A program made the position numbers and the translations under genes. Below, in pieces: positions 20,378 through 30,882 of a DNA stretch of 64,000 nt; position 1 is the first letter of the stretch; each line of letters begins with the position of its first letter. A model generated the notes under the pieces. That model ran no database searches. It saw nothing but the letters and a program-made list of their open reading frames with translations, and was not told where the DNA came from. Source of the stretch: Microbacteriaceae bacterium (lineage in GTDB: Bacteria > Actinomycetota > Actinomycetes > Actinomycetales > Microbacteriaceae); the NCBI GenBank assembly GCA_004297935.1, contig SCRE01000004.1:28357-92356 (forward strand), in the 5' to 3' direction.

Positions 20378-20815
20378 TCAGGCCTTCTCGGTCTCGGATG
20401 CCTCGGCTGCGACGTCTTCTGCAGCCTCGGTGGGCGCCTGTTCCGCGGTCTTGGCGGCCGGCTTGTCGGCCTTCGGCTTCAAGACCGGCTTCTTCTTCTC
20501 GTCGGCGACGAAGACAGCCTTGGCTTGCTTCATCTTGACGGTGTTCGCGACCTTCTTGGAACCCTTGAAGGTGCCCCAGTCGCCGGTCAGACGCAGCAGG
20601 GCCTGCACCTGGTCGGTCGGCTGCGCGCCCACGGAAAGCCAGTACTGCGCACGCGCGGAGTCGACCTCGATGACCGAGGGCTCCTGCGTCGGGTGGTAGA
20701 TGCCGATCTCCTCGATGACGCGACCATCACGCTTGGTGCGTGAGTCGGCGACGACGATGCGGTAGTACGGTGCGCGGACCTTGCCCATGCGCTTCAGACG
20801 GATCTTGACAGCCAC
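20378..20815 (-). CDS. rpsP: 30S ribosomal protein S16
   Basis: [28 protein letters not shown]. Confidence 0.99.
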
Positions 20816-20952
20816 AATTCTCCTGTGTTGTATGAGGTGTTTGTCGAACTGACTGCCGGGGGCGTGGGGGCACACGCGGCAGGAGGTCTAGGGGGTTCCA
20901 CGCACGGTTTGATGAGAGGGTCGAACCGCGCAGAACTCAGGGGACCATTCTG
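20816..20952 (-). promoter_or_regulatory. rpsP promoter (extended -10 TGGCAGAAT) and structured 5' leader
   Basis: attctg at 20947-20952; stems gcacggtt/aaccgcgc (20902-20931) and ctgccg/cggcag (20853-20882). Confidence 0.45.
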
Positions 20953-20989
20953 CCAGACCGATCGGGAAACGGCTAATCCGGCGCGGCGC

Positions 20990-23083
20990 TCACCGAACAC
21001 TCAGGCGACGAGCGGCCGCGAGTCCCTCGCTCGTGGCTCGCACCGCATCCACCGCAGTCGCATCGCGAGCGCCGCCGACCACCTCACAGCGGATGCCTGC
21101 CTCGCGCAATTGTGCAGCCAGCGCCGTGTTCGGCTCCTGGCCGGCGCACACGATCACGGTGTTCCCCGGGATCAGTTCGGTGCCTCCATGCGTGTGCTCG
21201 ATGACGACGCCGGCCGGAGTGATCTCGCGGTAGGCGATGTCGGTCAGCATCCGCACCCCCGCCGCACGGAGCGCGCCGAGCGCGACCCAGCGTGAGGTGA
21301 TGCCGATTCCGTGGCCGAATCGGCCGTTGCGTCTCAACATCGTCACGAGGCCGCCTGCTCGCGGTGCCATCCGGATTCGCGGCCCCGCGAACGGCGGCTC
21401 GCCGTCTGCCAGAGCGCCGACGGACTCGGCCAGTTCGAACCGATCGGCGAATCCGGCGGCGCGTGCACGTCGATCGTGGGGTTCGACGAGGAATGCGGCG
21501 ACATCGACGCCGATGCCGCCGCCGCCGATGATGGCGACCGAGCCGTCCGGCACTCCATCGCGAAGGGCACGCTCGTATGACAGAACGTGCGGCAGTTCCG
21601 CGCCAGGCATGTCGATCCGGCGCGCCAGAACACCGGTCGCCACAACGACTGCGGTGAAGTCGCCGAGGAGTTCGACAGACGCCCGCGTGCCGGTTCTGAT
21701 GTCTGCACCGAGCATCGTCAGACGCGCCCGCGCGGACTCGGCCGTCCGCGCGTAGTCTTCCTTGCCGGGAACACGGGCCGCAAGCCTGAACTGCCCGCCG
21801 AGACCGTCGGCCGCTTCGAACACTGTGACGGCGTGCCCGCGCTCGGCCAGGTCGATCGCGGCCGCCAGCCCTGCCGGCCCCGCACCCACGACGGCGAATC
21901 GACGCCGACGCCGTGTTGTGCGCGCCGGAAACTGTGTTTCACGTCCGGCGCGGGGATTGACCAGGCACGACACCGGCTGAAAGACGAGTGAGCGGTCGAT
22001 GCAGGCCTGATCGCACCCGATGCAGGTGTTGACGGTGCCGAAGTCACCGCCGAGGCTGCGCGCGACGATGCGTGGATCGGCCAGGAACGGGCGCGCCAGC
22101 GCGACCGCGTCGACCGTCCCGCGCTCCAGGATGCGCTCGGCCTGACGCAGATCCGTGATCCGATTGCTCGCGATCACCGGAACACGTCGTGCACCGGCAT
22201 CGGCGATGGCCTCGGCGATTCGTTCCGCGTAGCCCAGCCATGCCCCGTGCGGCACGGATGCCTGAACCGTCGGCACCTGCGACTCGTGCCAGCCGATGCC
22301 GACGCTGAGCGCGTCTGCACCGGCGTCCACCAGCGCAGCGGCCAGGCCGCTCACTTCGTCCGGTGTGGATGAGCCGGGCATCAGGTCGTTTCCCGACATG
22401 CGCACGAGCACGGGGGTGGCCGCGGGCAGCGCCGCACGCACGGCACGCACCACGGCGAGCGCGAATCGGCGTCGGCGATCGCTGTCCCCACCCCACTCGT
22501 CGTCCCGCAGATTGGTCAGCGGCGAACAGAACTGGTTGATCAGATACCCTTCGGATGCCATGATCTCGACCGCGTCGAATCCGGCGTCGAGAGCGCGGCA
22601 AGCCGCATCCGCATAGTCCTGTACGGTCGCCGCGATCTCATCGGCGGTCAGCGCGCGCGGCACGGTGCCGCGAGCGGCACGCCAGGGCACGGCTGACGGC
22701 GCGACCGTCTGCTCGGCGCGACCGGCCGCATCCGCGAGCCCATCGAGAATCGCGTAACGGCCGGCGTGGAACAGTTGCGCTGCGATCACCCCGCCCGCAT
22801 CGTGCACGGCCTGCACGGCCCTGCTCAGTCGTTCATGCACGTCCGGCTCACCCAGAACCGCATAGTCGGGGCCGCCGCGACCGGCCGAGTTCACGGCGAG
22901 CCCGCCGGTGACGATCAGCGCCGCGCCGCCATCGACGCGTTCCCGGTAGAACGCGGCCAGACCCGCGCCGCCATCGTCCGAGACCTCGAGTCCGGTGTGC
23001 ATGCTGCCCATGACGATGCGGTGCGGCAATGCCAACGCGCCGATCGACCACGGCGTGCGCACCCGTGGCAGGAGGCCGTCCAC
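20990..23083 (-). CDS. FMN/4Fe-4S/FAD 2,4-dienoyl-CoA reductase (FadH-like; PlmM/AnsM equivalent in CHC-CoA synthesis)
   Basis: GSMHTG, MASEGYLINQF, CIGCDQAC...CLVNP iron-sulfur motif, VVGAGPAG; last gene of the chcA operon. Confidence 0.9.
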   Translation of the reverse strand: MDGLLPRVRTPWSIGALALPHRIVMGSMHTGLEVSDDGGAGLAAFYRERVDGGAALIVTGGLAVNSAGRGGPDYAVLGEPDVHERLSRAVQAVHDAGGVIAAQLFHAGRYAILDGLADAAGRAEQTVAPSAVPWRAARGTVPRALTADEIAATVQDYADAACRALDAGFDAVEIMASEGYLINQFCSPLTNLRDDEWGGDSDRRRRFALAVVRAVRAALPAATPVLVRMSGNDLMPGSSTPDEVSGLAAALVDAGADALSVGIGWHESQVPTVQASVPHGAWLGYAERIAEAIADAGARRVPVIASNRITDLRQAERILERGTVDAVALARPFLADPRIVARSLGGDFGTVNTCIGCDQACIDRSLVFQPVSCLVNPRAGRETQFPARTTRRRRRFAVVGAGPAGLAAAIDLAERGHAVTVFEAADGLGGQFRLAARVPGKEDYARTAESARARLTMLGADIRTGTRASVELLGDFTAVVVATGVLARRIDMPGAELPHVLSYERALRDGVPDGSVAIIGGGGIGVDVAAFLVEPHDRRARAAGFADRFELAESVGALADGEPPFAGPRIRMAPRAGGLVTMLRRNGRFGHGIGITSRWVALGALRAAGVRMLTDIAYREITPAGVVIEHTHGGTELIPGNTVIVCAGQEPNTALAAQLREAGIRCEVVGGARDATAVDAVRATSEGLAAARRLSVR

Positions 23084-23091
23084 GCGAGTGC

Positions 23092-23931
23092 TCAGAGCTC
23101 GGCTGACGCGCCGTAGACCGCGGCGCGCAGCTCACCGGTCGTGTCCGCCCAGAACGGCGGGGCGACGATGGTCAGCCCGCCGTCGACGGACAGCACCTGA
23201 CCTGTGATATAGCCCGCGTGCTCGGACAGCAGGAACTCGATGGCTGATGCCATATCGTCCGCCGTCCCCGGTCGGCCGAGCGGCAGTTTCTCGATCACCG
23301 ACTGCATGGGCGGGATGCCGGGGACGCGCTCATAGAAGAATTCGAGCGAGTCCGTGTCGATCAGGCCGCCGTTGACGGCGTTGACGGTGATGCCGCGCGG
23401 GCCGAACTCCGTGGCCATGTAGCGCATGTAGGTCTCTGCGGCCGCCTTGGCCGCACCGAGCGAGGCATAGGTCGGGAACGAGCGCAGCGAGCCGTAGCTG
23501 GTGACGACGACGATGCGGCCACCACCGGTCATCAGGTCGGCAGCGCGCTGGGCGCCGAGCACGAACGAGCGCACGTTCATCGCCCAGCTGCGGTCCAGGT
23601 GGTGCTGCTTCAACAGTGCGACCGGCTTGAACGCACTGGCCGCGGCGTTCGCAACGAACGCGTCGAGCCGGCCGTAGTGTGCCGCGACCGCTTCGAACAG
23701 CGCGTCGATGTCGTCCGGCTCCTCGACGTTCGCCTGAACGACTATGCCGTCCGCCCCCGCCGCGCGCACGTCCTCAAGTGTGCGCTGTGCGAGTTCGCGG
23801 TTCGCCTTGTAGTTGATCACCACGTTGGTGCCCGCTGCGGCGAGCTTGAGCGCGAGCACTCTGCCGATACCACGCGACGAGCCCGTGATCAGGGCGACGG
23901 GCGCACCGGTGCTTTCTGGGTTGGATGCCAT
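23092..23931 (-). CDS. chcA: 1-cyclohexenylcarbonyl-CoA reductase (SDR)
   Basis: TGSSRGIG, NAAASAFK, HHLDRS, SYGS, YPTY-type PTYASLGAAK, NGGLIDTDSLEFFY, IVAPPFWAD; these match my recollection of Streptomyces collinus ChcA along the whole length. Confidence 0.88.
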   Translation of the reverse strand: MASNPESTGAPVALITGSSRGIGRVLALKLAAAGTNVVINYKANRELAQRTLEDVRAAGADGIVVQANVEEPDDIDALFEAVAAHYGRLDAFVANAAASAFKPVALLKQHHLDRSWAMNVRSFVLGAQRAADLMTGGGRIVVVTSYGSLRSFPTYASLGAAKAAAETYMRYMATEFGPRGITVNAVNGGLIDTDSLEFFYERVPGIPPMQSVIEKLPLGRPGTADDMASAIEFLLSEHAGYITGQVLSVDGGLTIVAPPFWADTTGELRAAVYGASAEL

Positions 23932-23950
23932 GCTGCCGGGTCTCCTCGCG

Positions 23951-25105
23951 TCAGACGGCGCCCGCGACAACGGCGCGCGCCACGATCAATTTCTGAATCT
24001 CGTTGGTGCCCTCCTCGAAGCGCTGAGCCCGCGCGTCGCGGTAGACACGTTCGATCGCATTGCGTTTCCAGTATCCTTGCCCGCCATAGATCTGCAACGC
24101 TTTGTCGGTCACGCGCGTGAGCATGTCGACGGCGATCATCTTGGACGCGCTCGAGAGCACGCCGGCGTCGGCCGACCCGGTCGCGAAGGCGCGCCCTGCC
24201 TGCATCACCAGAGCGCGCGCCGCCGCGATGTCCGCGTAGTTCTCGGCCAGATAGAACTGGATCGCCTGTCGCTGTGACAGCGCCTTGCCGAACGTCTCAC
24301 GCCGGTTCGCGTAGTCGACGGCGAGTTCCTGCGCCCGCTCGGCGAGGCCGACACAGCTCATCGCCACGGATACCCTGCTCGGCAACAGGAATCCGCCGAG
24401 CATCACGGCCAGCCCGTCGCCCTCAGCGCCGAGGCGAGCGGAGACGGGAACCGGCGTGTTGTCGAAGTGCAGCACCGCGTGGTCGGTGCCGCGCACGCCC
24501 ATCGTCTGCGAGTCGTCGATCACCTCGGCACCGGGCAGGCCGGAATTGGGCACCAGAAGGGCGACCGTGCCATCCTGGCCGTTCGTCCCCTCCAGACGCG
24601 CTGCCAGCAGCCAGTAGTCACAGTGAACGCCGAACGTGATCAGATGCTTCTCGCCGCTGAGATAGTACGTGTCCCCGTCGCGGCGAACACTGGTGCGGAT
24701 GTCCGCCCCCGTGCCGGCCGTTGCTTCCGTCAGCGTGAACGCGACCAGCACATCGCCCGCGACGGACGGCTTGATGATCTGCTCTCGCTGCGCATCGGTG
24801 GCGAAGGGATCCATGGCGCGCCAGGTTCCGTTGACGACGTGCACAAGCATCCGGATCGATGCGTGGGAGTGCGAGAAGAGCTCCATCAGCTCGAGATAGC
24901 GGACGAAGTCGATGTCGCGCCCGCCGAGTCGCCCGGGCGCCGCAAGGCTGAGGTAGCCTCGTGCCTTCAGTTCCGCGAACAACGCGGGCGGCACCTGACC
25001 GGTCTCCTCGATGACGTTCGCGTAGTCCTCGCCGGGGCCCCGCACCCAGGCGTCGATCTCGTCTTTGAGGGCGGTGAACGTGTCGGCGTCGACTGCCGGT
25101 GTCAT
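23951..25105 (-). CDS. Acyl-CoA dehydrogenase family protein (PlmL/AnsL equivalent)
   Basis: FTLTEATAGTG, GEKHLITFG, MGVRG, RETFGKALSQRQAIQ, QIYGGQGY, FEEGTNEIQK. Confidence 0.92.
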   Translation of the reverse strand: MTPAVDADTFTALKDEIDAWVRGPGEDYANVIEETGQVPPALFAELKARGYLSLAAPGRLGGRDIDFVRYLELMELFSHSHASIRMLVHVVNGTWRAMDPFATDAQREQIIKPSVAGDVLVAFTLTEATAGTGADIRTSVRRDGDTYYLSGEKHLITFGVHCDYWLLAARLEGTNGQDGTVALLVPNSGLPGAEVIDDSQTMGVRGTDHAVLHFDNTPVPVSARLGAEGDGLAVMLGGFLLPSRVSVAMSCVGLAERAQELAVDYANRRETFGKALSQRQAIQFYLAENYADIAAARALVMQAGRAFATGSADAGVLSSASKMIAVDMLTRVTDKALQIYGGQGYWKRNAIERVYRDARAQRFEEGTNEIQKLIVARAVVAGAV

Positions 25106-28100
25106 ATCGTCTCCTTTGTCGCCGCAACCAGGGCGGCTGCCATTTCTCTGAGTATGGTCTTCTGGATCTTGCCGATCGCATTGCGGGGCAGCTCATCGAC
25201 GAGCTCGAGCCGCTCCGGCCAGTAGTACTTTGACACGCCGGCTGCGGCCAAATACTGTTGCAGCGCCTTGAAGCTCAGCGGACGATCCGTCCGCGTCGAC
25301 ACGACGAACGCGCAGGCCCGCTCCCCCAACCGCGCGTCGGGCATGGCCACGACCGCGACGTCCGCGACCAGCGGATGCTGGTACAACAGATTTTCCACTT
25401 CCACGACGGGCACTTTCTCGCCGCCGCGGTTGATGACGTCCTTGACCCGACCCGAAATGCGCAGAAACCCTTCATCGTCGACGGCGGCGAGATCGCCTGT
25501 GCGATACCACCCGTCGGTGGTGAACACGTCTGCCGTCAGGTCGGGGCGCTCGAGGTAGCCGCCGAAGATCGTCGGCGACCGCAGTTCGAAATTCCCCTCC
25601 GTTCCTGTCGGCACCGGCATCCCCGCGTCGTCCACGATGCGGATGTCGATGCCGGCCAGCGCACGCCCGTCGCTGCCCCACGCGTGCTCGGGTGCGTCCT
25701 CGGGCGAGGCCAGCGTGCCCAGACAGGTTTCCGTGGTTCCGAACGCGCCGAGCACCGTTGTGCCGAGCACCGCGGTCGCGTGCTCGGCGAGCGAGCGCGG
25801 CACGGCCGCCCCCGTGGCCACGAAGATCCGCAGCGACTCTGGCGACTGCGCCCCGGCCTCGACCTCGCGGACAAGGTCCATCAGGAACGGTGTCGCCGCT
25901 TGCACGAACGTCGCCTTTGCCTGGCCGAATCCCTGTTCGAGGGCGAGCGGCGCATCCCACACCGGCTGGATCACGGCCGCGGCGCCGAGCTGCCAGGAGA
26001 GCAGCATCCCATACAGGAATCCGGTCTGATGCGCCAGCGGCGACGGCACGAAGATCCGGTCGTCCGTGTCGAGCCCGAGGTGCGCGATCTCCATCTCCAC
26101 CGCGCGCGCAAGGGTGCCGTGCGTGTGTTGCACCCCCTTGGGCTCTCCGGTCGTGCCCGAGGTGAACAACAGCTGGCACACATCGTCTGGATGGGGCGCA
26201 CGGGACCGGATGTGCGGCAGATCGGGCGTCACCGACGCCAATGCCGCGTCGTAGTAGTGCCAGGTCCAGTCCACGGTTTCGACGATGGCGGCCGCAGAAT
26301 CGGGGATCGGTGGCAGATCGGTCGACACATCGGCGGAGTGTCTGTTCTCGGTCTGCAGCACGATCACGTGTTCGAGTGCGAGCGGTCGCGACTGCCGACG
26401 AGCCCGCACACCCACGTCCAGCAGTTCGATGGCCGGCCGGCGGTGCCGGAACAGGTTCGGCAGGAACAGCACTCGAGCGTGAGATCGTGCCAGTGTCATC
26501 GTGGTCTCACGCGGGCCGAACGCCGGCATGATCGGTGTGACGACCGCGCCCACCTGGATGATTCCCAGCGTGATGGCCACGAACTCGCGCCAGTTCGGCA
26601 GTTGCACGGCCACCGCCTCCCCGCGACGCACGCCGAGATCGAGCAGCAGCGCCGATACCTGATCCGCCTCGCGCTGCAGCGCGCTCCAACTCACGACCGC
26701 CGGCGCGTCCGGCCCGACCTCGATGACGCCGGGCTCATCCGACCGCTCCTGCGACAGCGTGAGCACATGTTCCACGGGACCGTGGACACCGAAAGCACCG
26801 TAGCCGTATCCGACGGCTCCGGACCCGGCCGCCGAACGGCGTGCAGCCTCCTGGGGCGTGACGCGGTCGGTGTCTGCGCCCGTCGCGTAGCCGGAGTCCG
26901 GATCGCTCGCGTCCGGCTGACGCGCCGAGCTGACGTCGATCTCCAGCCCGATGCCGTTCATCGCATCGAGGAATTCCGGATAGGAAACGCGGTATGCGTG
27001 CGGGTAGGTCAACGCCGAACTGCCCTCCGCGCGCGTCGCGGCGACCGCCAAGGCCATCAGCACCCGGTGATCGTTGAACGAGGACAGTGCGGCGGAACGC
27101 AGGTGTTCGACACCGGTGATCCGCAGCTCGGAGTCGCTCTGCCGCGCCGACGCACCCATCCGGTTCAATTGCAGCATCGCCGAGACACGATCGGATTCCT
27201 TCAACCGGATATGTCCGACGTTGCGCAGCGTACTGGTGCCGTCGGCGACGCCCGCCATCGCCGAGAGCACCGGCAGCAGGTCCGGAATGGGCGCGCAGTC
27301 GATATCGAGCGGGTTCAGCCGGATGCCATCGTGCCGCACCCGCACGAACCCGGTCGCCCTGTCCAGGCGCAACGGCACCCCCATCCTCGCCGCCAGGTCG
27401 AGGAATTCCGACTCCGGGTGATCTGTGTCGGCGGCCCGGATGGCGGACAGCCCGCTGAACAGCACGTCCGACGGGTGCAATGCGGTCGCCGCGACACCGA
27501 ACGCTGCCGCGCCGATGTCCGGTGGGAGTCGGTAATCGGCGGGCGTTGCCGTCTGATTGCCCGGAATGCGATAGTTGAGCCAGTCGTCATCGTGTTCCAC
27601 GACCAGGCCGAAGGTGCGCATCATCCGAATCGTCAGGTCGACATACGGCTGCTCGTTGAGTGCCCCACCGGTCACGTGCACCGTCGTGTCCGTGCGAGCG
27701 AACGGGGCGAGCAGGAGCAGCCCGCTCAGCCATTGCGAGAGTGTTCCTGCGATCTCCACGTCGCCGCCACGGGGTCGCACCGGTTGCACGGTGATCGGCG
27801 GGCATCCGTCTGTGGCCGTCAGCTCCACGCCCATTTGCTGCAGCGAGGCGAGCAGGGCGCTGATCGGCCGCCTGCGGAAATACTTCATGCCGGTGAGTGT
27901 CATCGGTCGATCGGCGAGGCTGGCGAGCCCCGTCATGAAGTACAGCGTCGTGCCGGACGACCCCACGTTGAGCAGGCCGTTCCTGCCGTTGCTGCCGTTC
28001 TCGTCGATGTCCGCAGCCCGGTACGGACCTCCCGTCACGAGGTAGTCGTCACCGACGATGCGGATGTCCGTGCCGAGCGCGCGTAAGACGCTGATCGTCC

Positions 28101-28254
28101 ATTCGACCTGCCGTGTCGCGGAGATGCCGGAGACCACGCTGGTGCCTTCGGCGAGCGAGGCGAGCACCAAGGCACGGTGTGCGTGATACTTCGACACCGG
28201 GATCTCAAGTTCCCCGGTCAGCCGGCCTTCCGTGCCATGAACGATGAGTTGCAT
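25102..28254 (-). CDS. Fusion of an EPSP-synthase-like domain and an ANL-family acyl-CoA ligase (PlmJK / AnsJ+AnsK equivalent)
   Basis: N-half SKYHAHRAL, GSSGTT, PDLLP, RLKESDR, NDHR; C-half FTSGTTGEPKG, AFGTTET, YRTGD, GRVKDVINRGGEK, GKIQK; one continuous frame. Confidence 0.92.
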   Translation of the reverse strand: MQLIVHGTEGRLTGELEIPVSKYHAHRALVLASLAEGTSVVSGISATRQVEWTISVLRALGTDIRIVGDDYLVTGGPYRAADIDENGSNGRNGLLNVGSSGTTLYFMTGLASLADRPMTLTGMKYFRRRPISALLASLQQMGVELTATDGCPPITVQPVRPRGGDVEIAGTLSQWLSGLLLLAPFARTDTTVHVTGGALNEQPYVDLTIRMMRTFGLVVEHDDDWLNYRIPGNQTATPADYRLPPDIGAAAFGVAATALHPSDVLFSGLSAIRAADTDHPESEFLDLAARMGVPLRLDRATGFVRVRHDGIRLNPLDIDCAPIPDLLPVLSAMAGVADGTSTLRNVGHIRLKESDRVSAMLQLNRMGASARQSDSELRITGVEHLRSAALSSFNDHRVLMALAVAATRAEGSSALTYPHAYRVSYPEFLDAMNGIGLEIDVSSARQPDASDPDSGYATGADTDRVTPQEAARRSAAGSGAVGYGYGAFGVHGPVEHVLTLSQERSDEPGVIEVGPDAPAVVSWSALQREADQVSALLLDLGVRRGEAVAVQLPNWREFVAITLGIIQVGAVVTPIMPAFGPRETTMTLARSHARVLFLPNLFRHRRPAIELLDVGVRARRQSRPLALEHVIVLQTENRHSADVSTDLPPIPDSAAAIVETVDWTWHYYDAALASVTPDLPHIRSRAPHPDDVCQLLFTSGTTGEPKGVQHTHGTLARAVEMEIAHLGLDTDDRIFVPSPLAHQTGFLYGMLLSWQLGAAAVIQPVWDAPLALEQGFGQAKATFVQAATPFLMDLVREVEAGAQSPESLRIFVATGAAVPRSLAEHATAVLGTTVLGAFGTTETCLGTLASPEDAPEHAWGSDGRALAGIDIRIVDDAGMPVPTGTEGNFELRSPTIFGGYLERPDLTADVFTTDGWYRTGDLAAVDDEGFLRISGRVKDVINRGGEKVPVVEVENLLYQHPLVADVAVVAMPDARLGERACAFVVSTRTDRPLSFKALQQYLAAAGVSKYYWPERLELVDELPRNAIGKIQKTILREMAAALVAATKETI

Positions 28255-28287
28255 CAGATGCACCGTTTCTTCCGGTCGCCGTGGCAC

Positions 28288-28331
28288 CTGCCTGCATGCA
28301 GGCAGTGTGGCAACCTCCGTCGAGTTGTCAA
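28288..28331 (-). promoter_or_regulatory. Candidate sigma70-type promoter of the CHC operon with an 18-bp perfect palindrome at the predicted start site
   Basis: TTGACA (28331-28326), 16-nt spacer, CACACT; palindrome ctgcctgcatgcaggcag at 28288-28305. Confidence 0.55.
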
Positions 28332-28505
28332 ACACCCGAGAACTTACTCGCACCACGCTGTCGCGGCAAACCCGGCCGTAACGTGTTCGAGGTTCGCGTG
28401 TTTTCGCGCGCCGGCAGCGCTGGACCGGTAAAATCACCGCGTCGGTTCGGCAGAATCATCAGCCCGGCAAAGCCCAACCACATGAATTCAGTTTAGGGTG
28501 GAGCC

Positions 28506-29210
28506 ATGCTTCGCCGCCTCGGGCACATCCCGATCGTCCGCATCGTCGCGGTGGTACTGGCCGTCGGCACTGTGACGGCCGCGTTGGTCACGGCGGCGAC
28601 CGCTGTGGCTGCCCAACCGCATATCGTTCCGCAGACGACCAAAGGCTCGCCGAAGGGCCCGCTCGTGGTCACCATCGGCGATTCGATCATGGCGGGCCAT
28701 GGGCTCACCCCAGCAGAGGCGTGGCCCGCGCTGCTGGCAGTAGCCGACGAATGGCGCGTCACCAACTTGGCCAGCGACGGTTCCGGATTCGTCGCAATCG
28801 GCGACGAACGCGATACGTTCGCCAACCAGGTGAGTGCCGCGATCGCTCTGCACCCCGACGTGATCATCGTCGAGGGCAGTAGCAATGATGTCGGTGTCTC
28901 GAACACCGTGCTCGAGGCCGCGACCGACTCGACCATCGCGCACCTGCGGCAGGCACTGCCGAAGGCGACACTGATCGGCCTCAGTGCCGTGTGGGGCGAT
29001 ACAGCACCGCCGAGTCAACTGGCCGACATCGATGACCAAGTCGACAGCGCCGTGACCGGCAACGGCGGGTACTACCTCAACGTCGGCCAGCCGCTTGGTG
29101 GGCATGCTGACCTGATGCAGAGTGACGATGTGCACCCGACGGCATCCGGGCAACGCACGCTCGCTCAGGCGGTCAGCGAAGCACTGACCGCGTCTGCCAT
29201 TCGATTCTGA
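28506..29210 (+). CDS. Exported SGNH/GDSL hydrolase
   Basis: Signal peptide; blocks GDS, GSG, GSSND, DDVHP; TAGGGT -10 hexamer 6 nt before the ATG. Confidence 0.88.
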   Translation: MLRRLGHIPIVRIVAVVLAVGTVTAALVTAATAVAAQPHIVPQTTKGSPKGPLVVTIGDSIMAGHGLTPAEAWPALLAVADEWRVTNLASDGSGFVAIGDERDTFANQVSAAIALHPDVIIVEGSSNDVGVSNTVLEAATDSTIAHLRQALPKATLIGLSAVWGDTAPPSQLADIDDQVDSAVTGNGGYYLNVGQPLGGHADLMQSDDVHPTASGQRTLAQAVSEALTASAIRF

Positions 29211-29238
29211 GCACGATGTTGAACATGGACGGCCCCGA

Positions 29239-30882
29239 TCAGCGCCCGAGGTACTTCTGCAGGGTCGCGAGTTCTTCCTCGGTCGGAGCATTCGTCTTGC
29301 CCGCAGCCCTGCTGCCGGCCAGGCCGAAGCCCGACCCGCCACCGATAGCCGTACCCGTGGGTACGGCACCGGCCGCCAGTGCGGCGTTCTCCGCCGCACG
29401 CTTGGCCGGGTTCCCCGAACGAGAACCTCTCCTCTTCTGCTGCTTGGCCTTGCCGACGTAGCCGGCGCCCGGAATCGGGCCCATCCCGGGCACATTCGGC
29501 ACGCCACCCTTCGCCACGGTCTTCATCATCTTCGCCGCCTGCTCGAAGCGGGTCACGAGTTGATTCACGTCGGTGACCGTCCTGCCGGAACCGCGGGCGA
29601 TGCGCACACGACGTGACCCGTTCAGCAATCTCGGGTTGGCCCGCTCCGCTTTCGTCATGGACTGGATGATCGCCTCGGTGCGCACGATCTCCTTCTCGTC
29701 GAAGTTGTCGAGCTGCTGCTTCATGGCGCTGGCGCCGGGGAGCATGCCCATCATCTTCTTGATCGAGCCCATGTTGCGCAGCTGCTGCATCTGCTTGAGG
29801 AAGTCATCGAGCGTGAACGTGTCCGTCGCGAACTTCTCCGCGACCTTGCGGGCTTCTTCCTCGTCGAACGCTTCCTGCGCCTGCTCGATCAGGGTGAGCA
29901 CGTCGCCGAGGTCGAGGATGCGGCCGGCCATGCGATCCGGGTAGAACGGCTCGAAGTCGTCCAGACCCTCGCCCGTGGAGGCGAAGATGATCGGCCGACC
30001 GGTGACGGATGCGACGGACAGTGCCGCCCCACCGCGCGCGTCGCCGTCGAGCTTGGAGAGCACGACACCGGTGAAGTCCACGCCGTCCTGGAACGCCTTG
30101 GCCGTCGCGACGGCATCCTGACCGATCATCGCGTCGATGACGAACAGCACCTCGTCCGGGTCTGTCGCCTTGCGTATGTCGGCAGCCTGCTTCATCAGTT
30201 CGGCGTCAACGCCGAGTCGCCCGGCCGTGTCGATGATGACGGTGTCGTACTGCTGCCGTTCCGCCTGCTTGACCGCGTCCTTCGCGACCCGCACCGGGTT
30301 GCCCACGCCGTTGCCGGGCTGCGCTGTCTGGGGCGCCGCCGCCCCTGCGGCGCCCTCCCCGGAAATGCCGTACCCGCCGCTGTTTCCGGGGTGTGGTGCG
30401 AACACGGGCACGCCGGCCTGCTCGCCGACGATCTGCAGCTGGGTGACCGCGTTCGGACGCTGCAGGTCGGCGGCGACGAGCATCGGCGTGTGTCCGCCTT
30501 TGACGAGCCACTTCGCGAGCTTGCCGGCGAGGGTGGTCTTTCCCGCACCCTGCAGGCCGGCGAGCATGATCACGGTCGGCGGCTTCTTCGCGAACCGCAA
30601 TTGACGCTGCTGTCCGCCGAGGATGCCGACAAGCTCCTCGTTGACGATCTGCACGACCTGTTGCGCCGGATTCAGCGCCTTGTTGACCTCGTCGCCGAGC
30701 GCCCGCTCCCGCACCGAGGCCGTGAACTGCTTGACCACGGGCAGAGCGACGTCCGCATCGAGCAGGGCGCGACGGATTTCGCGGACCGTGCCGTCGACAT
30801 CCGCAGCGGACAGTCTGCCCTTGGTGCGGAGGTTCTTGAAGGTGTCTGTGAGCCGTTCAGAAAGGGTGCCGAAAGTTGCCAT
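29239..30882 (-). CDS. ffh: Signal recognition particle protein Ffh
   Basis: GLQGAGKTT, DTAGR, SKLDGDARGG, M domain; carries a 24-aa insert in the G domain. Confidence 0.98.
   Translation of the reverse strand: MATFGTLSERLTDTFKNLRTKGRLSAADVDGTVREIRRALLDADVALPVVKQFTASVRERALGDEVNKALNPAQQVVQIVNEELVGILGGQQRQLRFAKKPPTVIMLAGLQGAGKTTLAGKLAKWLVKGGHTPMLVAADLQRPNAVTQLQIVGEQAGVPVFAPHPGNSGGYGISGEGAAGAAAPQTAQPGNGVGNPVRVAKDAVKQAERQQYDTVIIDTAGRLGVDAELMKQAADIRKATDPDEVLFVIDAMIGQDAVATAKAFQDGVDFTGVVLSKLDGDARGGAALSVASVTGRPIIFASTGEGLDDFEPFYPDRMAGRILDLGDVLTLIEQAQEAFDEEEARKVAEKFATDTFTLDDFLKQMQQLRNMGSIKKMMGMLPGASAMKQQLDNFDEKEIVRTEAIIQSMTKAERANPRLLNGSRRVRIARGSGRTVTDVNQLVTRFEQAAKMMKTVAKGGVPNVPGMGPIPGAGYVGKAKQQKRRGSRSGNPAKRAAENAALAAGAVPTGTAIGGGSGFGLAGSRAAGKTNAPTEEELATLQKYLGR

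Follow-up and report, generated by a model that had tools for sequence, protein, structure and literature searches.

Among the classic markers of chemotaxonomy are omega-cyclohexyl fatty acids, known from Alicyclobacillus, Curtobacterium pusillum, Gryllotalpicola, and Humibacter, and their origin from shikimate has been recognized since the 1970s. The pathway was reportedly defined by labeling and enzymology by Oshima and Ariga in 1975 and by Moore, Poralla, and Floss in 1993. Its proposed logic in Alicyclobacillus and C. pusillum is that shikimate is converted to cyclohexanecarboxyl-CoA (CHC-CoA), which then primes the fatty acid synthase. A gene cassette for CHC-CoA is also found in antibiotic clusters of Streptomyces, and its enzymology is said to have been worked out by Cropp et al. 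in 2000 and Skyrud et al. in 2020. Here, we describe a four-gene operon in a Microbacteriaceae bacterium (GenBank assembly GCA_004297935.1, contig SCRE01000004.1) that matches this cassette and stands alone on the chromosome. We consider it likely that the operon makes CHC-CoA from shikimate, most likely as the primer for omega-cyclohexyl membrane fatty acids in this soil actinobacterium.

The operon lies on the minus strand at positions 20990 to 28254 of the window, the whole stretch of 64,000 nt that was analyzed (contig positions 28,357 to 92,356). In the direction of transcription, it starts with a gene for a fusion of an AroA-like domain and an acyl-CoA ligase (25102..28254; 1,050 amino acids). 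This is followed by an acyl-CoA dehydrogenase (ACAD)-like flavoprotein with four ACAD domains, the counterpart of AnsL and PlmL (23951..25105; 384 amino acids), and by a ChcA-like short-chain dehydrogenase/reductase (SDR). The SDR gene spans 23092..23931 (279 amino acids) from an ATG, the likely start, or 23092..23970 (292 amino acids) from the TTG that opens the longest frame. The last gene (20990..23083) encodes a FadH-type 2,4-dienoyl-CoA reductase of 697 amino acids with Oxidored_FMN and Pyr_redox_2 domains, the counterpart of AnsM and PlmM. A first-pass annotation of the window had described four codirectional, nearly touching genes here, and the listing of open reading frames together with Pfam and NCBIfam scans confirmed that layout. 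The stop of the fusion gene and the start of the ACAD gene overlap (ATGA), the ACAD and SDR genes are about 19 nt apart or overlap by 20 nt depending on the SDR start chosen, and 8 nt separate the SDR and reductase genes.

By its sequence, the operon has all the architectural features of the shikimate-to-CHC-CoA cassette. In Streptomyces seoulensis, a fusion gene is followed by ACAD, SDR, and FadH-like genes in the same order as in the window, with identities of 53, 66, 62, and 53% over the full length of the proteins, in operon order. That cassette is preceded by a 3-amino-5-hydroxybenzoic acid (AHBA) set (type II dehydroquinase, aminotransferase, oxidoreductase, phosphatase, and a class II 3-deoxy-d-arabino-heptulosonate 7-phosphate synthase) and by a protein with adenylation, peptidyl carrier protein, and thioesterase domains, so that the cluster is of the ansatrienin type. 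The S. seoulensis SDR, and not ChcA of Streptomyces collinus itself, was the protein used for the ChcA comparison. A search seeded with the Actinosynnema copy returned many Streptomyces fusions and led to MycA4 (AFG19409.1) from the mycotrienin/ansatrienin cluster of Streptomyces flaveolus, which is likewise 53% identical to the window fusion over its full length. The ansatrienin/mycotrienin cassettes (ansJ-ansK-ansL-chcA-ansM of S. collinus; MycA4 and its three neighbors) encode these four types of protein with order and orientation unchanged, and their AroA-like domain shares the unusual motifs SKYHxHRAL and GSSGTTLYF with the window copy. We take the plmJK-plmL-chcA-plmM genes of the phoslactomycin cluster (Streptomyces sp. 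HK803), as that cluster is generally described, to have an identical architecture. The match in gene set and order that had been proposed from the letters alone thus holds gene for gene, at 53 to 66% identity to S. seoulensis and MycA4.

The surroundings of the operon differ from those of the antibiotic cassettes. S. flaveolus is an ansatrienin producer (PMC13304725), and the ansatrienin/mycotrienin clusters, unlike the window, place the cassette near AHBA genes, a polyketide synthase (PKS), a nonribosomal peptide synthetase (NRPS), and a LuxR regulator. The phoslactomycin PKS takes CHC-CoA as its starter (PMC9730843), whereas the window genome has no such PKS. In contrast to the antibiotic-cluster cassettes, the operon lies in the core chromosome between ffh and rpsP and belongs to a separate, strongly supported clade, the members of which have, in their AroA-like domain, about 10 inserted residues that the Streptomyces cassette lacks.

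We predict that the fusion is the counterpart of MycA4, PlmJK, and AnsJ plus AnsK and acts as a shikimate (or cyclohexene-carboxylate) CoA ligase. Its AroA-like domain is N-terminal, and a complete adenylate-forming CoA ligase follows. The fusion matches the Pfam domains EPSP_synthase (255 bits), AMP-binding (228 bits), and AMP-binding_C, and its translation contains the ligase motifs TSGTTGEPKG and GKIQK. The AroA-like half narrowly passes the NCBIfam model for aroA. In alignments to Protein Data Bank (PDB) sequences, this half keeps the counterparts of Lys22, Arg27, Arg124, Ser170-Gln171, Tyr200, Asp313, Asn336, Lys340, Glu341, Arg344, and His385-Arg386 and carries four substitutions (Ser23 to Tyr, Asn94 to Ser, Arg100 to Tyr, and Ser197 to Glu); the residue numbers and the substrate-binding and catalytic assignments are those that we take to apply to Escherichia coli AroA. 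All four substitutions are invariant in every cassette copy in the alignment, of the lipid as well as the antibiotic type, and so are a trait of the family and not a peculiarity of the window. In Herbiconiux loci (L061-L070) and four genomes of the family sample (G110, G120, G185, and G248), the AroA-like and ligase halves were matched as two stretches. Some of these Herbiconiux-type genomes have the halves in separate frames, one with a TGA between them, and the fusion is thus not universal within the lipid-type clade.

The three remaining proteins have features that fit work on ring CoA esters. The ACAD-like protein, predicted to be an FAD-dependent dehydratase/dehydrogenase on such esters, contains the EEGT catalytic-base motif. 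The SDR (adh_short_C2, 200 bits) is likely the counterpart of the 1-cyclohexenylcarbonyl-CoA reductase ChcA. Its top NCBIfam match is the enoyl reductase FabL, its top PDB match is FabL of Bacillus subtilis (3OIC; 190 bits, the next match having 130 bits), and it carries the Tyr-x6-Lys motif typical of enoyl reductases (TYASLGAAK). The reductase matches E. coli 2,4-dienoyl-CoA reductase FadH (1PS9) over its full length (E = 4e-143), with FMN and FAD/NADPH domains and the iron-sulfur motif Cys-x2-Cys-x3-Cys...Cys (CIGCDQAC...C). FadH and FabL are the closest solved structures for the two reductases; they act on linear dienoyl-CoA and enoyl-acyl carrier protein (ACP), whereas the window enzymes would act on cyclohexadienyl- and cyclohexenyl-carbonyl-CoA. 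In the operons of Arthrobacter koreensis, A. gandavensis, A. luteolus, A. citreus, and one Arthrobacter sp. (L041, L042, L047, L071, and L077), there is no SDR gene between the ACAD and reductase genes, and the ChcA step there may proceed without an operon gene or be encoded elsewhere.

Homologs of the operon genes were also found in Alicyclobacillus. A search of 1.84 billion representative proteins was dominated by adenylation domains of multimodular NRPSs and yielded about 12 useful rows, one of which led to this genus. In Alicyclobacillus cellulosilyticus, genes for a ligase (46% identity), an ACAD (55%), and a divergent old yellow enzyme homolog (partial; 51% to the window reductase) are adjacent, and an SDR (49%) is encoded elsewhere in the genome. 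A second ACAD of this species is 52% identical to the window protein.

To characterize the distribution of the operon, we scanned genomes at the species level and found 79 loci with the operon; by tblastn with the window proteins, nearly all of them keep the fusion-ACAD-chcA-reductase order. The arrangement is far beyond chance, and 70-odd species have these four genes in this order. In an even sample of the family, the fusion was present in 39 of 300 genomes, which represent 18 of 101 genera, leaving about 87% of genomes without it. All four genomes of the window's own genus keep the fusion gene, the partner genes adjoin it in the loci of relatives, and the four genes are conserved there at 65 to 92% identity.

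The chromosomal position is also shared. Curtobacterium species (C. pusillum ATCC 19096, C. ammoniigenes, C. flaccumfaciens, C. luteum, and others) have the operon in the same ffh-operon-rpsP-rimM-trmD position, and the same place between ffh and rpsP is occupied in six Gryllotalpicola species, Humibacter, Frondihabitans, and Lacisediminihabitans. In C. pusillum ATCC 19096 (L009), the proteins encoded at this place are 67 to 77% identical to those of the window. Because several genera share the position, the locus is old and not a private insertion. Among 29 other genomes of the family, rpsP directly follows ffh in only 3, and this rarity marks the interval as a variable spot in the Microbacteriaceae. 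The operon sits at other chromosomal positions in Subtercola, Herbiconiux, Kocuria sp. 36, the Arthrobacter citreus group, Lentzea, and Actinosynnema. An NRPS adjoins the cassette in Actinosynnema, and two genes for beta-ketoacyl-ACP synthase III (KAS III) stand directly upstream of it in Lentzea sp. NBRC 105346 (L044:7736-9687), which indicates that the cassette serves secondary metabolism in those lineages. The Lentzea pair recalls asukamycin/manumycin-type pathways, which are started from CHC-CoA.

We constructed a phylogeny of the ligase half, in which the copies from Microbacteriaceae, Luteimicrobium, Propionibacteriaceae, Kocuria, and Rothia uropygioeca form one clade (support, 100/100). 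Its stem of 0.83 substitutions per site sets it apart from the Streptomyces and Pseudonocardiaceae copies found in antibiotic clusters. Nested among the Microbacteriaceae sequences are the fusions of Kocuria sp. 36 (L037), Rothia uropygioeca, Propionibacterium sp., and Acidipropionibacterium thoenii, with the Kocuria fusion grouping with Gryllotalpicola (100/99). This topology suggests that the operon was transferred between actinobacterial families.

The operon was then compared with the distribution of cyclohexyl fatty acids. It is present in C. pusillum ATCC 19096, C. ammoniigenes, six Gryllotalpicola species, Humibacter albus, and Herbiconiux. Cyclohexyl-C17:0 is reported in the species descriptions of C. 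pusillum, C. ammoniigenes, Gryllotalpicola, Humibacter, and Propionibacterium cyclohexanicum. The correlation that the first-pass annotation had proposed therefore holds, in that reported taxa carry the operon and about 87% of the family sample does not. For Herbiconiux, the genus description states that cyclohexyl-C17:0 may be present (PMC10011130), and the literature also mentions a Curtobacterium that has omega-cyclohexyl fatty acids.

Among named species, the nearest relative is Rathayibacter soli SW19T, whose fusion is 91% identical to that of the window and whose genome has 4,740,677 bp and 64.2% G+C (PMC11294650). One database name for its fusion protein is Glaciibacter superstes, a hint that the genus assignment is unsettled. 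In this strain, 50.8% of the fatty acids fall into a single peak, unlike in other Rathayibacter, and the peak bears only a MIDI "summed feature" label; the text gives it as summed feature 9 and Table 2 in the row of summed feature 8 (PMC11294650). We suspect that the peak is mislabeled cyclohexyl-C17:0, because C18:1 ω7c or 10-methyl-C16:0 at half of all acids would be odd for this Gram-positive family. Herbiconiux strains have similar "summed feature 8" fractions in their published profiles. R. soli grows at pH 6.5 to 9.5 and 10 to 30°C (PMC11294650). A role in acid or heat tolerance, which had been suggested by analogy with Alicyclobacillus, finds no support in such a mesophilic neutrophile and does not fit this lineage.

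If the operon supplies CHC-CoA, something in the cell should consume it. We therefore searched the whole genome (98.5% complete), beyond the window. It contains a single PP-binding protein, which is AcpP, encoded within a fabD-fabH-acpP-fabF operon. There is one genuine ketosynthase, FabF, and two further weak matches are thiolase-sized frames of 400 amino acids. No NRPS condensation domain was found in the genome. The sole PKS is of type III. Its gene is on another contig, where genes for an ICMT-type methyltransferase and an FAD monooxygenase complete a trio (C41:245536-248300; L095:5534-8299), probably a phenolic-lipid operon of the alkylresorcinol type like srsABC. The earlier statement that the window has no PKS, NRPS, or ACP gene thus extends to the genome for modular PKSs and NRPSs, with AcpP as the only ACP, but not for PKSs altogether, given this type III enzyme. 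The check for a CHC-primed PKS elsewhere in the genome, which that annotation had called for, turned up no assembly line that would use CHC-CoA. In R. soli SW19T, antiSMASH likewise reported no PKS (PMC11294650).

From the gene content, we infer the chemistry of the individual steps, the priming by FabH, the lipid product, and its physiological role. The four genes would act as one operon that takes shikimate, via CoA thioesters, to CHC-CoA. The ligase half of the fusion would form the CoA ester of the ring. The ACAD-like flavoprotein, the FadH-type reductase, and the FabL-like SDR would then carry out dehydrations and double-bond reductions, as in S. collinus and Alicyclobacillus, probably assisted by a housekeeping enoyl-CoA isomerase, as in Streptomyces. 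Because no CHC-CoA-using assembly line was found in the genome, we infer that a KAS III (FabH1 or FabH2) may take up CHC-CoA as the starter for type II fatty acid synthesis. The products would be omega-cyclohexyl C17 and C19 fatty acids for membrane lipids. The match to the known cassette, the taxa that carry the operon, and the lack of a CHC-using assembly line in the genome all support such a primer role, as the first-pass annotation had proposed, with the lipid itself a presumed product.

The priming step could be served by either of two FabH proteins, which share 39% identity. FabH1 is encoded in the fabD-fabH-acpP-fabF operon. FabH2 is encoded by a solitary gene on the window's own contig, about 17 kb beyond the end of the window (C27:109836-110795), and has an intact Cys-His-Asn triad; its neighbors (DUF308, a zinc-dependent alcohol dehydrogenase, and an F420-ligase-like gene) are not conserved. 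In the Microbacteriaceae sample, FabH2 orthologs (at least 59% identity) occur in 14 of 39 operon carriers versus 0 of 261 noncarriers, five of the latter having matches at 49 to 58%. Carriers of FabH2 include C. pusillum, C. ammoniigenes, C. flaccumfaciens, H. albus, Gryllotalpicola ginsengisoli, Herbiconiux ginsengi, and Kocuria sp. 36. In the draft genome of G. ginsengisoli DSM 22003 (G303), the sole KAS III found is of the FabH2 type, which may be an assembly gap; three other Gryllotalpicola genomes carry both types. A first KAS III tree looked clean. In a joint tree of Microbacteriaceae and Micrococcaceae, the FabH2 clade was a mixed polytomy. FabH2 thus appears to be a paralog family of its own, not a proven CHC-specific initiator, and its role as a dedicated CHC-CoA KAS III was kept as a lead only, since the association fails in the Micrococcaceae and the neighbors are not conserved.

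Several observations weigh against a lipid-primer operon or against parts of the mechanism proposed for it. FabH2-type genes (59 to 63% identity) are present in at least 10 Micrococcaceae genomes that lack the operon, and 8 of 9 operon-bearing Micrococcaceae have no FabH2-type gene. The operon is also found in taxa for which only iso and anteiso acids are listed, including much of Curtobacterium, and its presence may therefore not always mean a major lipid. The ligase half, the ACAD-like protein, the SDR, and the FadH-type reductase all score below curated NCBIfam cutoffs. The A. cellulosilyticus draft shows no AroA-like paralog. Finally, the description of R. soli names no cyclohexyl acid (PMC11294650).

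Alternatively, the operon could supply CHC-CoA, or a cyclohexene or dihydroxy intermediate, for a small molecule, with CHC-CoA as the starter of the type III PKS (yielding a cyclohexyl resorcinol or pyrone) or as the donor for an unrecognized acyltransferase. Type III PKSs accept acyl-CoA starters directly, the trio on the other contig joins such an enzyme to an ICMT-type methyltransferase and an FAD monooxygenase, and the Lentzea and Actinosynnema cassettes adjoin a KAS III pair or an NRPS. However, the window copy belongs to a clade without antibiotic-cluster context, and the type III PKS lies on a different contig and is distributed independently of the operon, for which reason we rejected it as the CHC-CoA consumer. 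It occurs in 115 of 300 family genomes and 15 of 39 operon carriers (38% each) and turned up in none of the sampled operon-bearing genomes of Curtobacterium and Gryllotalpicola, so it is not a general partner of the operon. In addition, srsABC-type trios, such as Srs of Streptomyces griseus, use long-chain fatty acyl starters, which counts against CHC-CoA in that position. We regard a small-molecule function as unlikely. Still less probable is a catabolic role, in which the operon would turn alicyclic or hydroaromatic acids (cyclohexanecarboxylate, naphthenic acids, shikimate, or quinate) into CoA esters and break these down in the manner of the Ali/Bad pathways. Ali/Bad degradation (AliA, AliB, and BadK/H/I) likewise uses a CoA ligase and an ACAD on CoA esters of the cyclohexane ring. 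The top NCBIfam match of the ligase half is indeed a cyclohexanecarboxylate-CoA ligase (430 bits), and the ACAD-like protein weakly matches models of cyclohexane-1-carbonyl-CoA dehydrogenase. Yet the scores stand at 430 against a cutoff of 792 for TIGR03208, 168 against 650 for NF043006, and 111 against 575 for TIGR03207, and the ACAD-like protein is far under the cutoffs of the catabolic cyclohexanecarboxyl-CoA dehydrogenase models. Adjacent genes for a hydratase, hydroxyacyl-CoA dehydrogenase, ring-opening hydrolase (BadK/H/I), thiolase, transporter, or regulator were not found, the neighbors being ribosomal and signal recognition particle genes. In place of the BadK, BadH, and BadI partners, the operon has an AroA-like domain and a FadH-type reductase. 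Both that domain and the order of the genes correspond to the biosynthetic cassette.

The operon could also be intact and little used, whether conditional or vestigial, with cyclohexyl acids absent or minor in ordinary culture. The published profiles of several carriers are mostly anteiso and iso (e.g., H. oxytropis), and a scan upstream of the operon scored no promoter-like site. Against this, the four frames are open, conserved at the identities given above, and core-like in composition, all four genomes of the genus have retained the fusion gene, and a single unusual peak dominates the profile of the close relative R. soli. On balance, disuse also seems improbable. Beyond the role as a source of lipid primer that we favor, a more ambitious reading can be drawn, one that we hold tentatively and think rather doubtful as a whole. 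It posits a distinct lineage of lipid cassettes, marked by the long stem and the 10-residue insertion, that moved between families, with FabH2 as the CHC-CoA-specific initiator in the Microbacteriaceae and with membranes in which cyclohexyl acids are the dominant chain, also in neutrophiles that are mesophilic or tolerate cold, the R. soli group among them. On this reading, the 50.8% peak of R. soli would be mislabeled cyclohexyl-C17:0, and the function would not be acid or heat protection.

The operon is flanked by rpsP-rimM-trmD downstream and ffh-ftsY upstream, as identified by Pfam and NCBIfam. It had been described as inserted between ffh and rpsP. The flanks are right, but a gene for a GDSL/SGNH hydrolase (28506-29210, plus strand), divergent from the operon, also intervenes before ffh, and the locus is not a private insertion. 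The hydrolase gene is not part of the operon unit; besides the window genome, only the closest relative has it (L001; 85% identity), and a 41% homolog adjoins ffh in one further genome of the family (L101). G+C at third codon positions is 79 to 86% in the operon, the same as in the adjacent housekeeping genes, and nothing in it points to recent acquisition.

The divergent intergenic region between the operon and the hydrolase gene (28255..28505) presumably holds the operon promoter; a consensus scan of it scored neither a sigma-70-like promoter nor a terminator. At the other end, a gap of about 175 nt (20816..20989) separates the last stop of the operon from rpsP, whose GTG start lies near 20815 and whose protein begins with MAVKIRLKR. 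This gap would contain the end of the operon and the rpsP promoter or leader, and no terminator-like hairpin was scored in it. The ATG of the fusion at 28254 has GGAAG upstream and aligns with the N termini of homologs (MQLIVHG versus MHLLVHG of MycA4). A longer fusion frame reaching 28437 was judged not real, as the homolog starts point to 28254. So was a minus-strand frame of 339 amino acids (28488-29507), which has no family matches and overlaps the hydrolase gene and the end of ffh. A frame of 942 amino acids on the plus strand (25258-28086), antisense to the fusion gene, is, like the 339-amino-acid frame, probably an artifact of high G+C content.

Both the pathway and the lipid were already known. 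In the literature that we searched, we found no paper that assigns genes of the cyclohexyl lipid pathway in the Microbacteriaceae, nor any that gives a stand-alone operon as the basis of the lipid in this family. Outside antibiotic clusters, the genes for the trait were unnamed there, the sole exception being a passing one-line statement on genes for the lipid pathway in Sulfobacillus (PMC4378227). As a compact four-gene cassette from outside Streptomyces, the operon could supply CHC-CoA for engineered production of polyketides or fatty acids. It would also offer a simple genetic marker for the cyclohexyl lipid trait in the Microbacteriaceae. The marker flags probable MIDI mislabeling in species descriptions and predicts carriers that have gone unrecognized, namely, the R. 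soli group, Frondihabitans, Subtercola, and the plant-pathogenic C. flaccumfaciens. With it, the trait would become testable in mesophiles.

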